Shown: positions 2,557-7,229 of the stretch, in pieces
Layout of the letters: each line of letters starts with the position of its first letter
How positions within the stretch are numbered: the stretch's first letter is position 1
Source of the DNA: a virus
Taxonomy: Duplodnaviria > Heunggongvirae > Uroviricota > Caudoviricetes
DNA length: 7,229 nucleotides
Direction: 5' to 3' (one strand)
Virus record (IMG/VR): IMGVR_UViG_2675903368_000012
Translations under genes and position numbers: made by a program
Notes under the pieces: generated by a model
Databases searched by the model: none
What the model was told of the DNA's origin: nothing
What the model saw: only the letters and a program-made list of their open reading frames with translations

Positions 2557-2787
2557 TTAATGGAGTTTGTTTTGCTGCTGGATGAGCTGTTGAAGCTCGT
2601 GCAGATCATCCGCCAGATAGCTGAAAACAGAGGCGGAATAAATGTTTGATAGTGCGTGGCTGCGCTCATGCAACATATTGATGTGCATGATTTGCGCGAC
2701 GCGTGATGCGCGGGAAAGTCTGCGGTTGATTTCAGTCTGGATGTGACGACGCTCCGCGATAGCGCGGTGTGGTTTGCGGTTTGCCAT
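2557..2787 (-). CDS. Hypothetical small basic protein, 76 aa, first ORF after the structured leader
   Basis: ORF MANRKPHRAIAERRHIQTEINRRL... with C-rich third codon positions typical of enterobacterial coding sequence. A possible SD (AAGGGG) sits 8 nt upstream and is embedded in a hairpin arm. An overlapping alternative frame (the 205 aa ORF in the track) is low-complexity and was rejected. Confidence 0.5.
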   Translation of the reverse strand: MANRKPHRAIAERRHIQTEINRRLSRASRVAQIMHINMLHERSHALSNIYSASVFSYLADDLHELQQLIQQQNKLH

Positions 2788-2925
2788 GGTGTGGCCCCTT
2801 GTGTAGTAAGTTGTGAAAACTCACCATCCAGAGCTGCGAAACTGTGGGTGGCGAGACGTACGAGGTTCGCAGTACCGGCTACACAAGAACCCGGCCCGAC
2901 CGAAGTCGGCCCCGTACGCCCCGCC

Positions 2926-2954
2926 ATAATTCTGACGCGAAAAAAACGTGGCAA
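2926..2954 (-). promoter_or_regulatory. Candidate sigma70 promoter just downstream of the terminator, for the 76 aa / 121 aa / A module
   Basis: Minus strand reads TTGCCA (-35, 5/6 to consensus), a 17 nt spacer, then AATTAT (-10, 4/6 with A2 and T6 present). Predicted start near nt 2919, at the base of the cUUCGg hairpin. Sequence-only call. Confidence 0.3.
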
Positions 2955-2964
2955 TACAGAACGC

Positions 2965-2987
2965 ACAAAAAAACCGCTGGCGCGGTT
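2965..2987 (-). terminator. Rho-independent terminator for minus-strand transcripts leaving the 99 aa gene
   Basis: Read on the minus strand: stem AACCGC / GCGGTT (6 bp, 4 GC pairs) with loop GCCA, followed directly by a run of 7 T. On the plus strand the same hairpin is followed by GTGCG with no T-run, so it is unidirectional. Confidence 0.55.
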
Positions 2988-3109
2988 GTGCGCTTGTGTA
3001 GTCAGCAGGCTGCGAAACCCGGCACCCGTTTTGTGAGGTGCAGCGGAAATGTAACCTGACTGATTGCGGCATGGCAAGCGGTTTTTTTGTGTGTGCATGT
3101 TCTGGTTTC

Positions 3110-3409
3110 TTAGTGGTTCAGAAAAAAATCAAAAACCTTGTCAATGCGTTGCAGCAGCTCTTGCTGTATTGCTTTCGGCGTTTCCGGTTCGCCTGGCGCC
3201 TCCAACGTCGCGCAGAAATCCTCGATTTCATGACGGAGCGTCAGGCGAATGGCGAGAGGTGTGGTTCTGGCGTGCTCCAGCTCATCCAGCAGCGCCAGCA
3301 CAGCAGACGGCGAGAGCATTGCGCGAAACGCCAGTAATTTTTGAGGCGTTGCCATTCGTTGCAGGTCAGTCGCCAGTTCGCGTAATTCCTGGTGGTTGAT
3401 GGCGCTCAT
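3110..3409 (-). CDS. Hypothetical helical protein, 99 aa
   Basis: ORF whose ATG overlaps the stop of the upstream 81 aa gene (ATGA overlap at 3406-3409). TAA stop at 3110-3112. No family recognised. Confidence 0.7.
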   Translation of the reverse strand: MSAINHQELRELATDLQRMATPQKLLAFRAMLSPSAVLALLDELEHARTTPLAIRLTLRHEIEDFCATLEAPGEPETPKAIQQELLQRIDKVFDFFLNH

Positions 3410-3651
3410 GCTCTGGCTTCCTTCAGTAGCTGGTTAAACGTGTTGGTAAGTGGATTGCCGCACCCGAACGGCATCGGGTTTATCTGGTAAGAAAAGCGAC
3501 CGCCTGTTTTGCGCTCTTTTCTTATGACTGAACCGCTGCGCCAGAGTCGGCGTAACTCCGCATTAATGGCTGTGGTTGGAGTATTCAGTGCTGCGGCGAT
3601 TTCTCCACCGCTACACCCCGGATTGGCGGCGATATAGTCCAGAATGGTCAT
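3406..3651 (-). CDS. Small winged-helix regulator, PapI/FaeA-like, 81 aa
   Basis: N-terminal pattern ILDYIAANPGCSGGEIAAALN...LRRLWRSGSVIRKE matches the PapI/FaeA signature as I recall it (IL..L....G....EIA.AL......L..L...G.V.R). ATGA overlaps with both neighbouring genes. Confidence 0.7.
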   Translation of the reverse strand: MTILDYIAANPGCSGGEIAAALNTPTTAINAELRRLWRSGSVIRKERKTGGRFSYQINPMPFGCGNPLTNTFNQLLKEARA

Positions 3652-3851
3652 CTGCGTGACTCCTGTACCTGTCGGATAAGGTTCACCCGCACCACATTCG
3701 TGGCGCAGAAGTAAGTGCCGTCAGTGAGATAGATGTGATGTGCATCCTTTTCTGAACGGTGTTTGTCGATTGTGGTAATCAGGCGTTCGTCGACTTCGTA
3801 TTCACGCCCTCTGGAGGTAAAACGAACGACAGGAAAATGCTTAATTGCCAT
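3648..3851 (-). CDS. Hypothetical protein, 67 aa
   Basis: Strong SD (AAGGAGG) 5 nt upstream of the ATG at 3851. Stop overlaps the start of the next gene (ATGA). No family recognised. Confidence 0.7.
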   Translation of the reverse strand: MAIKHFPVVRFTSRGREYEVDERLITTIDKHRSEKDAHHIYLTDGTYFCATNVVRVNLIRQVQESRR

Positions 3852-3937
3852 TACGCCTCCTTGGCGTGTGCGAATACCTCCGCGAATGCGGATTGTTTTT
3901 ACATTTTCTTATTTAATCTGTGGTTTTATTTGCTCTG

Positions 3938-4051
3938 TTATTCGCCAGTGAAAAAGCGTTCAATCTTTTTTATTGAATGAATAATTCGCATAATCCCAAT
4001 AGCGCAGGCCACCGAAATAATCAGAACAAGCCATGAGATAAATATACTCAT
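3938..4051 (-). CDS. Small hydrophobic peptide, 37 aa (MSIFISWLVLIISVACAIGIMRIIHSIKKIERFFTGE), not in the ORF track
   Basis: ATG at 4051-4049 overlaps the TGA stop of the 80 aa gene (ATGA). About 20 hydrophobic residues followed by a basic tail, i.e. a single-pass membrane peptide. TAA stop at 3938-3940. Confidence 0.4.
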   Translation of the reverse strand: MSIFISWLVLIISVACAIGIMRIIHSIKKIERFFTGE

Positions 4052-4290
4052 GCGATATTCCCCAGCTCATACGGTTCAATATGTTCCCCGCATTCTGCGG
4101 CACAGATCAGCTCGGAAAGTTCGTTAAGTGCATCCAGATCATCAGCGTAAAAAGCCACGTCATACAGACTTCGGATTGCTCTGGTCAATGAGTCACGGGC
4201 CGCACGTTCAGCATGAGCGCCTGATACACTTAAGCGAAAATAAAAGCGCTCAAGTGCTTTGTTAATGAGAGTTTTATATTCTTTGCCCAT
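4048..4290 (-). CDS. Hypothetical protein, 80 aa
   Basis: ORF with an AGGG SD-like element 7 nt upstream, starting 11 nt after the stop of the 94 aa gene. No family recognised. Confidence 0.65.
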   Translation of the reverse strand: MGKEYKTLINKALERFYFRLSVSGAHAERAARDSLTRAIRSLYDVAFYADDLDALNELSELICAAECGEHIEPYELGNIA

Positions 4291-4301
4291 CGCAACGCCC
4301 T

Positions 4302-4589
4302 TTAATCTGCTTTCTGAATTTCAGTTTCTGAATCCATACAGATAATTTCGATATAGGGTTTATCGCCATTAACCTGACGAGCCTTTTCAGCTTCGCTAAT
4401 GATTTCGCGTACGGTCTGGTACGGAAGTTCCACGATCAGTCGCGTGCCGTTCAGATAAACGTAAGTGGCTTCGGCGGCTCCGTTTTTCCCCGCCGGAGCC
4501 ACTCCATCAATAGCGGATGCGCGTAATAACAGTTCACCGCGAAAATCAATAAAGCGGATAAATACACCTTGAGTATGGTCTTTAGTCAT
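4302..4589 (-). CDS. Hypothetical protein, 95 aa (internal ATG of the 115 aa track ORF chosen as start)
   Basis: ATG at 4589 is preceded by AGGTG at 7 nt spacing and lies 10 nt after the TAA stop of the 113 aa gene. The longer 4649 start would overlap that gene by 50 nt. Confidence 0.65.
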   Translation of the reverse strand: MTKDHTQGVFIRFIDFRGELLLRASAIDGVAPAGKNGAAEATYVYLNGTRLIVELPYQTVREIISEAEKARQVNGDKPYIEIICMDSETEIQKAD

Positions 4590-4599
4590 AAAGCACCTG

Positions 4600-4941
4600 T
4601 TATAAATCAGCCTGTTTAATAAAACTCTGTCCACGCAGCAGACGATCAACCGTGCGAAGCGCTTCGTATAATGTGAAATCCTGCCCGAACTGATTGTCGC
4701 CGCTGCTCAGAGCAAAAATGCGGTTTCCGGTAAACGGATTGCGCGGGCATTTGTGGACCACGATTCCAGCTTTCTCAATCAGCCAGGCATGCTCGCCGAT
4801 TTGTTTTACTGGGTAGCCATCCGGCGTTGCGTGTGTATCACTCAGGCTGTAGCGGATGTTGCTGCGTGATGCACTGGTAGCAAAACGGTTAGCGTGGCGT
4901 TCTGCACCATTGCGAAAGCGTGAATTACGTTGCTGTTTCAT
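4600..4941 (-). CDS. Hypothetical protein, 113 aa
   Basis: ORF starting 1 nt after the stop of the upstream 35 aa ORF (TAA-c-ATG), consistent with termination-reinitiation. No family recognised. Confidence 0.65.
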   Translation of the reverse strand: MKQQRNSRFRNGAERHANRFATSASRSNIRYSLSDTHATPDGYPVKQIGEHAWLIEKAGIVVHKCPRNPFTGNRIFALSSGDNQFGQDFTLYEALRTVDRLLRGQSFIKQADL

Positions 4942-5694: not shown

Positions 5695-5823
5695 TGTGGT
5701 AATCTCCCTAATTCGTTCGAATGGCTCAAAATGGCTTATATCGGCTTATTTGAGTGTTTTTATGTTTGTGCCCGATGTGGCATGTTGTGATGGAGGATAT
5801 GCCCGATATGGCATCTTTGTCAA
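5695..5823. promoter_or_regulatory. Repressor/cox divergent switch region with candidate early promoter Pe and operator repeats
   Basis: Direct repeats TGCCCGAT(G/A)TGGCAT at 5769-5783 and 5800-5814. On the minus strand, a perfect TTGACA (5823-5818), an 18 nt spacer and TATCCT (5799-5794). Three 10 bp-phased GGCT units at 5723-5726, 5733-5736 and 5743-5746. Confidence 0.5.
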
Positions 5824-6128
5824 GCATGGGTGAAAAATTTCGCCTGATTCGTGAAGCAGAAGGTATGACCCGCCAGGAGTTTGCGGATTGTGTTGGGCTG
5901 CCTTATGGGACGGTAACTAACTATGAGGTGAGGGGGAAGCAAGTAACAGAGGGTGCCTTACTTAAGGTTACGAAACACCCTAAATTTAAGAAGTATGCTT
6001 ATTGGTTATCAACAGATGAAACGATGCCGGAGGTCGGGCAAATTTCTCCGGCTCTCTCTCTTGATGGTTCCTGCAATTCGGAGGGAGATCGCGTTTCAAC
6101 CGAAACAATCCAAAAATTATCCCGCTGA
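5808..6128 (+). CDS. C: Immunity repressor, P2 C-type, 106 aa
   Basis: Conserved segments GLPYGTVTNYE, KHPKFKKYAYWLSTDE and GQISPALSLDG match my recollection of P2 C (GVPYGTLSYYE ... PQFTKYTLWFMTNQ ... GQIAPALA). GGAGG SD 11 nt upstream of the ATG at 5808. The track ORF's 5754 start is a GTG with no SD. Confidence 0.85.
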   Translation: MASLSSMGEKFRLIREAEGMTRQEFADCVGLPYGTVTNYEVRGKQVTEGALLKVTKHPKFKKYAYWLSTDETMPEVGQISPALSLDGSCNSEGDRVSTETIQKLSR

Positions 6129-6224
6129 GGCCAGAAAACTGGTTAGACCTGCTTTTTGTCTGGTCTGATTATTGCTGGAAAGAGGCTGGAGAAATTGTAG
6201 AGCGGTTCATTGGAGGGCTTCGTA

Positions 6225-7229
6225 ATGTCGATTAAGAAGCTCGAAGATGGTCGTTATTTGCTGGACATCAGGCCGAACGGACGCAAGGGAAAGCGCGTGC
6301 GTAAGGTATTTGACAAAAAATCGGTAGCGGTGGCCACTGAACGCTACATCATGGCGAACGCTGAAAAGCGGAAATATATACAGGGCTACCGTGATCGTCG
6401 AACGCTAAATGATTTGCTTGAGTTGTGGTGGATGTATCACGGCCAGCACAGGCGTAAGGCGGAAGAAGACCGAAAACAACTGCGCAACATAATCAATGAG
6501 CTTGGCGCTGATATGCAGGCTGTGGATCTTGATAAGCTGAAAATTATCGCGTGGCGTTCTCAAAAGATAGCTGATGGATTGAAACCGTCATCTGCTAACA
6601 GGTACATGAATCGGTTATCCGGAATGTTTACCGTGCTGAAAAAAATAGGTCTTTGGGATGCAGAACATCCAGTAAGGGGAATTTCTATTCTTTATGTATC
6701 TCCACGAGAAATGGCGTTCCTGTCACAGAAGGAAGTGGCGCTATTGCTCGATACACTGGAGGGCGACTACTGGCGTGTTGCGCTTTTGTGTTTAAGCACA
6801 GGGGCGCGCTGGAGTGAAGCTTGTAAGCTTCGTGGTGAACAGATAGTTCATAACCGTGTAACGTTTCTTGAAACCAAAAATGGCCGGAAGAGAACAGTAC
6901 CAATTTCGCAGGCAGTTTGTGAGGCGATCAAAACCAGAGAAACAGGCGGCTTGTTTGAGGTGAAGTACCGGGAATTCTGCCTGGCGCTGAAAAGAGTTAA
7001 GCCCGATTTACCAAAAGGCCAGGCTGCACATGTGCTGCGGCATACGTTCGCCAGCCATTTTGTGATGAACGGAGGAAACATTATTGCGCTTCAGAAGATT
7101 CTTGGTCACGCAACCATTCAGCAAACAATGGCATATGCGCATTTTGCACCGGATTACCTGCAGGATGCGGTGGCCCTTAATCCGCTGAAAGGTGGCGTAA
7201 GTGTCCACGCAGTGTCCACGGGGGATTAA
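6225..7229 (+). CDS. int: Tyrosine integrase, P2 Int-like, 334 aa
   Basis: N-terminus MSIKKLEDGRYLLDIRPNGRKGKRVRKVFDKK parallels P2 Int. Catalytic-domain motifs LSTGARWSEA, HVLRHTFASH and LGHATIQQTMAYAHF. GGAGGG SD 7 nt upstream of the ATG at 6225; the track ORF starts at an upstream TTG. Confidence 0.9.
   Translation: MSIKKLEDGRYLLDIRPNGRKGKRVRKVFDKKSVAVATERYIMANAEKRKYIQGYRDRRTLNDLLELWWMYHGQHRRKAEEDRKQLRNIINELGADMQAVDLDKLKIIAWRSQKIADGLKPSSANRYMNRLSGMFTVLKKIGLWDAEHPVRGISILYVSPREMAFLSQKEVALLLDTLEGDYWRVALLCLSTGARWSEACKLRGEQIVHNRVTFLETKNGRKRTVPISQAVCEAIKTRETGGLFEVKYREFCLALKRVKPDLPKGQAAHVLRHTFASHFVMNGGNIIALQKILGHATIQQTMAYAHFAPDYLQDAVALNPLKGGVSVHAVSTGD

Follow-up and report, generated by a model that had tools for sequence, protein, structure and literature searches.

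A predicted minimal winged-helix protein from the early operon of a P88-like prophage, encoded between two small accessory genes and without membership of the PapI/FaeA family

Introduction

In the early operon of phage P2, orf78, B and orf80-83 lie between cox and the replication gene A. We analysed a 7,229-nucleotide (nt) stretch of viral DNA (IMG/VR record IMGVR_UViG_2675903368_000012), hereafter "the window", meaning the whole stretch at its full length, in which three small overlapping genes encoding proteins of 67, 81 and 99 amino acids (aa), named here g67, g81 and g99, share with the P2 accessory genes the cox-A position and a Pe-driven operon. No sequence relationship between the trio and the P2 genes was seen, and P2 is not among the phage matches. 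A first-pass annotation of this DNA had described the trio as a coupled cassette centred on a PapI/FaeA-like protein, g81; we find instead that g81 is predicted to be a minimal winged helix-turn-helix (wHTH) protein of the MarR/ArsR type, that it does not belong to PapI/FaeA, and that its two neighbours appear to be modules independent of it.

Another described set of small early genes is found in lambdoid phages. The small early proteins of their exo-xis region, Ea22 included, are non-essential and modulate the lysis-lysogeny decision (PMC8614690, PMC7093339), and Ea22 is laid out with a central coiled coil and a C-terminal domain (PMC8614690). The N-terminal 43 aa of g99 recur, at 65% identity, in Ea22-like proteins, which in some Shiga toxin (Stx) phages lie together with relatives of g81 in the PL early region; unlike lambda Ea22 (PF13935), however, g99 is only 99 aa long and has neither the coiled-coil nor the C-terminal domain.

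Fold and family of the middle protein

The winged-helix nature of the middle protein, as first proposed, is borne out both by Pfam matches and by an AlphaFold2 (AF2) model. The g81 protein scores above the Pfam cut-offs of MarR_2 (PF12802; 28.3 bits vs. 27) and HTH_24 (PF13412; 26.0 vs. 21.9), and all of its 28 relatives match both families at the E-value limit of the scan, the best E-value being about 2e-08. In the AF2 model (mean predicted local distance difference test, pLDDT, 84.3), helices are placed at residues 3-9, 15-21 and 26-39, followed by a wing made of strands 42-46 and 53-57 and by a last helix at residues 67-80. The top PDB matches of this model in Foldseek are MepR, SlyA, SmtB and MexR, and the top 50 consist of MarR, ArsR/SmtB, AspA and Z-alpha domain proteins; at the sequence level, the best PDB match obtained with phmmer is YhgG/FeoC (E 0.012, residues 3-63). 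Judged from sequence and model, g81 is best described as a minimal MarR/ArsR-type winged-helix protein with three helices, a basic wing and one amphipathic C-terminal helix.

The comparison with these families goes only part of the way. The g81 model superposes on the wHTH cores of MarR and ArsR/SmtB proteins (MepR 3ECO, SlyA 1LJ9, SmtB 1SMT) with template-modelling (TM) scores, TMq, of 0.6-0.69, and, like ArsR/SmtB proteins, g81 ends in a post-wing helix. Unlike MarR proteins, however, it counts 81 aa instead of about 140 and is devoid of the N- and C-terminal dimerisation helices: a single helix follows the wing, none precedes the first helix, and target-normalised TM scores against MarR proteins are 0.36-0.41. 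It also differs from both families in being phage-borne, in showing no ligand or metal site features, and in having a family-specific C-terminal motif, PxGxxNPx4FNxxL. FeoC/YhgG (1XN7, 2K02) is likewise a small single-domain wHTH protein of ~80 aa, but g81 stays below the family thresholds (12.5 bits vs. 21 for the FeoC Pfam family, 17.9 vs. 111 for NCBIfam), the Cys-rich C-terminal segment of FeoC is not aligned with g81, and the g81 gene has no feo context.

Relatives of g81, at 25-43% identity, keep the C-terminal motif and occupy accessory positions with differing neighbours in Stx/lambdoid, Klebsiella and Serratia phages. They come in four settings: in E. coli lambdoid phages, Stx-converting ones among them, within the PL early region (ea/exo-xis-type); in Klebsiella lambdoid phages, immediately downstream of the replication genes, where the preceding replication gene (P or AAA ATPase) ends next to or within the homologue; after bet in Serratia phage Eta; and, as longer forms, in Serratia and Pseudomonas phages. 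Across 55 lambdoid loci, genes for a 193-aa protein and DUF4752 are the usual neighbours of the wHTH gene. When one representative from each of four phage groups (P2-like, Stx/lambdoid, Klebsiella, Serratia) is compared, the best-conserved segment is the C-terminal one, residues 59-76, with 7 invariant positions out of 18, and it is this segment that holds the motif. We infer that the C-terminal helix may carry the function common to the g81 family, either dimerisation or docking onto a conserved partner, and that the DNA specificity of g81, if any, would differ between phages.

Relation to PapI and FaeA

The "PapI/FaeA signature" attributed to g81, for which PF04703 was the expected Pfam family, did not stand up to scrutiny: g81 has no match to PF04703 at E<=1, and this family is outside the 25 most-matched ones across the 28 relatives (E<=10). 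PapI itself, used as a positive control after its sequence was verified against PDB 2HTJ, matches PF04703 at 110 bits (5.5e-32). The PapI structure 2HTJ appears neither in the phmmer matches of g81 in the PDB at E<=10 nor in the Foldseek top 50, and BLASTP of g81 against PapI returns zero alignments. With hhalign, g81 does align with PapI at 88% probability and 29% identity, over its first 49 residues and PapI residues 4-52 only; a FeoC fragment scores comparably (80% probability) and the g81-PapI similarity is therefore generic to wHTH proteins. On these sequence and model comparisons, we reject membership of g81 in PapI/FaeA, what looked like a signature being a generic wHTH N-terminal pattern.

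Gene content of the trio

The three small coupled open reading frames (ORFs) were all confirmed, exactly at the positions first proposed for them and on the minus strand (Table 1). The same holds for their ATGA stop-start overlaps, both of which can be read directly as "tcat" on the plus strand, at 3648-3651 and 3406-3409. These are real genes, more than chance ORFs: g67, g81 and g99 match PHROG families with E-values of 1e-45, 5e-39 and 4e-60, respectively; their ratios of non-synonymous to synonymous polymorphism (pN/pS) are 0.20, 0.18 and 0.43 in the same order, with substitutions mostly at third codon positions; and the overlap is kept in 84 of 84 related loci for g67/g81 and in 61 of 61 for g81/g99.

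The proposal that one strong Shine-Dalgarno (SD) sequence drives the whole cassette is right in that AAGGAGG is present before g67, but g81 and g99 carry SD-like sites of their own, AGGAG and GAAGGAAG, so that this half of the claim has to be dropped. In loci with an extra upstream gene, AAGGAGG is swapped for other SD variants (AAAGGGGG, AAGGAA). Moreover, an ATGA overlap is also found at the junction between DUF4754 and the 37-aa gene of the same operon (4048-4051); coupling is therefore an operon-wide feature and not the mark of a special cassette. We also considered a natural g67-g81 fusion, given that phrog_19053 covers both genes and that some database proteins are longer, and discarded it, as the long forms are frameshift or chimeric read-throughs; no slippery site was seen on reading the sequence of the g67/g81 junction.

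The g67 protein is predicted, as a monomer, to be a five-strand all-beta protein (pLDDT 85). An exhaustive profile search over 1.84 billion representatives found 17 of its kind, the distant members being located in P2-family early operons where the gene is followed by one for a DUF4406 or Phage_ASH protein, not by a wHTH gene. A 1016-aa repeat protein (P0221) also matched the g67 profile, through a weak likeness to a short beta-hairpin segment. In the isolated phage Chuche (2501-2919 of locus L085), g81 is deleted and g67 is followed by a gene for a 72-aa protein, with the 4-nt overlap retained; this protein joins a new N-terminus to the C-terminal half of g99, whose own Ea22-type N-terminus has been deleted. 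By all appearances, g67 is an orphan all-beta protein and an independent module.

As for g99, it reads as a short mosaic protein with an Ead/Ea22 N-terminus. Its own match to Ead_Ea22 (PF13935; E 7e-4) reaches 20.6 bits, below the cut-off of 27, and covers residues 25-49 only; some close homologues have a precomputed PF13935 match, and a Stx2-phage protein with a score of 40.6 bits for this family shares 65% identity (E 3e-16) with g99 over residues 1-43. The C-terminal half aligns only to the close relatives of g99. In about 20 of the 84 loci, g99 is absent along with the isrK/C4/derepression block that lies next to it in the window, and these loci apparently form one clade, as judged from allele similarity (g81 at 91-94% identity) and not from a tree. 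That g99 might be part of this block is a weak candidate reading, two loci having the derepression gene without g99. Nor does the pairing of a wHTH gene with an Ead/Ea22 gene hold as a rule across phage types: the g99-type motif follows the wHTH gene in 4 of the 55 lambdoid loci only. Some Stx phages have such a pair, and so, going by annotation, does Klebsiella phage RothD, whose Ead/Ea22-annotated protein has no PF13935 match.

It had been suggested that g81 could regulate two partner proteins. This is not supported, as related phages can have any one of the three genes while lacking the others. Moreover, g67 and g81 alleles are shuffled, with 100% identity of g81 going with 87% for g67 in one case and 93% with 99% in another. 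The three genes do not form a fixed set; the trio would be a lineage-specific juxtaposition of independent modules, in which g67 and g99 are not obligate partners of g81.

Flanks and prevalence of the cassette

Comparison of the window with loci L003-L084 shows variable cargo sites on either side of the cassette (3852-3937 and 2788-3109) in related prophages. Between the gene for the 37-aa membrane protein and g67, the gap is 85-111 base pairs (bp) in 57 loci and 397-845 bp in 27, mostly with a gene for a 122-138-aa protein, and the sequence just 5' of g67 is not kept where a gene is inserted. From g99 to the derepression gene, the gap measures 320-325 bp in 27 loci, whereas 36 loci have 886-2158 bp there; the cargo, which lies between g99 and isrK/C4, includes a 67-aa membrane protein with a 274-276-aa SPFH-like lipoprotein, a 183-186-aa helix-turn-helix (HTH) protein, or 62-66-aa proteins.

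The genes of the 742-bp cassette are already catalogued, in PHROG families and by the Prokaryotic Genome Annotation Pipeline (PGAP). Roughly one complete E. coli genome in four has the cassette: it was found in 1325 of 5426 (1043 at a coverage of at least 80%). PGAP annotates it as two hypothetical proteins and a MarR family regulator, and the RefSeq names in P88 are "winged helix-turn-helix domain-containing protein" and "ead/Ea22-like family protein". Among species-representative genomes, two loci were found, one in E. albertii and the other in a "Vagococcus" contig. Near-identical copies of the prophage region or of a protein from it exist under Gram-positive names (locus L004, on a contig labelled Vagococcus sp. 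WN89Y, and protein P0085, labelled Enterococcus faecalis); these are most likely assembly contamination. PADLOC, which covers defence systems, gave no match for the cassette, and our literature search found no paper on the function of the cassette proteins.

The early operon around the cassette

The window is 98% identical to phage P88_4B11 across 99% of its length and 93-97% identical to other P88-like phages. P88_4B11 belongs to the P2-like genus Xuanwuvirus of the family Peduoviridae. We identify the window as the Pe early operon of a prophage that is P88-like (Xuanwuvirus, P2 family), and the earlier placement of the cassette, among the accessory genes that separate cox from the replication gene A in a P2-family phage, proved correct. 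Every gene from cox (5694) to gene A points the same way. After cox come the genes for a 68-aa membrane protein, DUF4761, phrog_3800, DUF4754 and a 37-aa membrane protein, then an 86-nt spacer; the spacer is followed by g67, g81, g99, isrK RNA and C4 antisense RNA, the PF25738 "derepression" gene, phrog_3237 and gene A. One mechanically called ORF (4302-4649, 115 aa, TTG start) overlaps DUF4761; PHROG and RefSeq annotation point to the 95-aa form starting at 4589 as the real gene there.

The top promoter-like site of our promoter scan is a Pe-like early promoter, from which transcription most likely runs from cox across the cassette as far as gene A. It stands between two direct repeats that resemble the non-palindromic direct-repeat operators of the P2 C repressor (PMC2995052), and the cassette therefore lies within a repressor-controlled early operon. 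The scan revealed no internal promoter above chance in the operon and no promoter-like site in the spacer upstream of g67. A 14-bp palindrome in this spacer was tried as a g81 operator and rejected, since it is not kept in the 100 nt before g67 in gene-inserted loci; in one insert-bearing locus (L065), it apparently lies upstream of the inserted gene.

Downstream of g99, promoter-like sites precede both the isrK and the C4 RNA (3077-3048 and 2954-2926). Together with the PF25738 gene, these RNAs look like a P1 immI-like, RNA-controlled antirepressor module set within a P2-family early operon. At the end of the block, the gene A product gpA is truncated to 703 aa, vs. 940 aa in P88_4B11, by an IS100/IS100kyp insertion sequence (IS) element, and this prophage copy is therefore probably replication-defective. 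Positions 1-73 of the window are the end of this IS21-family element, which is multi-copy in E. coli, at up to 26 places per genome.

Table 1. Positions of the trio and of surrounding features in the window.
Feature	Position	Strand	Remarks
g67 (67 aa)	3851-3648	-	First of the trio; small all-beta protein (predicted); phrog_3459
g81 (81 aa)	3651-3406	-	Middle gene; winged helix-turn-helix with conserved C-terminal helix (predicted); MarR_2/HTH_24; phrog_19053/1687
g81 residues 59-81	3406-3480	-	C-terminal motif region
g99 (99 aa)	3409-3110	-	Last of the trio; acidic; Ead/Ea22-type N-terminal 43 aa and private C-terminal half; phrog_4144
SD of g67, AAGGAGG	3862-3856	-	4 nt 5' of ATG
SD-like AGGAG within g67	3660-3664	-	8 nt 5' of g81 ATG
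SD-like GAAGGAAG within g81	3417-3424	-	7 nt 5' of g99 ATG
86-nt spacer upstream of g67	3852-3937	-	Has 14-bp palindrome TCCGCATTCGCGGA (3879-3892)
Integrase	6210-7229	+	
P2 C-type repressor	about 5825-6128	+	
Pe-like early promoter, TTGACA-18-TATCCT	5823-5794	-	Top promoter-like site in scan, 10/12
Direct repeats TGCCCGATGTGGCATGTT / TGCCCGATATGGCATCTT	5769-5786 and 5800-5817		Flank the Pe-like promoter; 31 bp apart
cox	5694-5407	-	First gene of the minus-strand block
c4-a1b1 target-like match	3054-3002	-	Weak
isrK RNA	3041-2967	-	64 bits (gathering 50); directly after g99
C4 antisense RNA	2931-2844	-	83 bits (gathering 45)
PF25738 "derepression protein" gene	2787-2557	-	3' of the RNAs
Gene A, P2-type replication endonuclease	2112-1	-	Last gene of the block

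Discussion

The explanation that we favour, with a probability of about 0.62, is that g67, g81 and g99 belong to the ordinary, conserved accessory content of the early operon that Pe drives in a P88-like prophage of the P2 family, with g81 most likely a small early regulator and the other two genes independent of it. Transcription from Pe would probably take place only after infection or induction, and translation would be compact, starting from the strong SD of g67 and continuing through the ATGA overlaps and the internal SD-like sites for g81 and g99. The g81 protein would then most likely act early in phage development as a small dimeric DNA-binding or partner-docking regulator, a role that may be comparable to that of the small exo-xis/ea/nin-region proteins of lambdoid phages, where g81 relatives occur; g67 and g99 would be accessory proteins that happen to be adjacent to it in this lineage. 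Three observations do not sit well with this explanation. The recognition helix is the least conserved part of the g81 family, with 1 invariant position out of 14; no conserved operator-like repeat was found near the cassette; and the g67/g81 ATGA junction is kept in each one of the 84 P88-like loci, because of which a functional pairing of g67 and g81 may exist in this particular lineage.

Two of the alternatives appear very improbable to us. In the one derived from the PapI/FaeA reading, g81 would rewire host (fimbrial) regulation as a co-regulator that works together with the Lrp and Dam methylation of the host. It is true that g81, like PapI, is a small basic wHTH protein, of a size near that of PapI, and that hhalign gives the alignment of the first ~49 residues described above; but the PF04703, phmmer, Foldseek and BLASTP comparisons are all without a PapI match, the C-terminus of g81 differs, and nothing in the aligned PapI region corresponds to the motif that the g81 family conserves there. 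The surroundings do not fit either: no GATC is found within 2608-4104 (window-wide, GATC is at chance, with 21 sites vs. 26.7 expected) and there is no GATC/Lrp-type regulatory context; g81 belongs to a repressor-controlled early operon, where all the cassette neighbours are phage early genes and no fimbrial gene is adjacent. We give just as little credit to g67-g81 as a toxin-antitoxin or abortive infection pair in which the antitoxin would be the wHTH protein, as in AbiEi. Two small genes that overlap, with an HTH protein encoded by one, would suit such a pair, and weak AbiEi_4 matches occur in 6 of the 28 g81 relatives (best E 0.017), but g67 and g81 each occur without the other, PADLOC has no match, and the early operon to which the pair belongs is a lytic one, kept repressed in lysogens. 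Indeed, neither the recognisable toxin fold nor the obligate co-occurrence of a type II toxin-antitoxin system is seen for these two genes.

Some other possibilities, although unlikely, deserve somewhat more attention. The arrangement of a small orphan gene immediately followed by an HTH gene with a 4-nt overlap recalls anti-CRISPR (acr) and anti-CRISPR-associated (aca) operons, in which case g67, and perhaps g99, would inhibit a host defence and g81 would be an Aca-like HTH autoregulator. The g67 family is tiny, fast-shuffling and confined to phage early operons, varying genes precede the g81 relatives at accessory positions, and cargo hotspots flank the cassette, all of which goes in this direction. 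However, such an operon would have its own promoter with inverted-repeat operators, whereas the 86-nt spacer is without a promoter-like site and the sequence upstream of g67, SD included, is replaced in gene-inserted loci, so that no operator or promoter is conserved there; in addition, the genes that precede the g81 relatives include replication gene P and bet, atypical Acr candidates, and g67 persists without g81 in phage Chuche. These same positions next to replication genes in Klebsiella lambdoid phages and after bet in phage Eta would speak for g81 as a replication or recombination accessory protein, that is, an origin- or helicase-loader-associated wHTH protein substituting for a P2 B-type function. 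The g81 gene presumably lies in the stretch where P2 has gene B, and no replication-loader annotation (e.g., a P2 B-type protein) turned up in the Pfam and PHROG scans, which would leave such a role vacant; but the E. coli lambdoid homologue is in the PL ea/exo-xis-type region, away from replication genes, and g81 has no sequence or structural match to replication proteins in Pfam, NCBIfam, PDB phmmer or Foldseek searches, so that here too we keep the probability low. No better rated is a third possibility built on the conserved C-terminal helix: this helix, and not the DNA-reading one, would define the g81 family as a class of mini winged-helix proteins spread across phages, and it would dock onto a host protein that is itself conserved (RNA polymerase, a nucleoid protein or a defence component), with g81 as an early host-takeover or anti-defence factor and g67 and g99 as lineage-specific, co-delivered effectors.

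One has to keep in mind that the favoured explanation, ordinary accessory genes in a P2-family early operon, matters little for the window itself. The useful outcome is a negative one, namely that g81 should no longer be passed on as a PapI/FaeA protein; if experiments might be worthwhile on any one point, it is the C-terminal motif conserved in the widespread g81 family.

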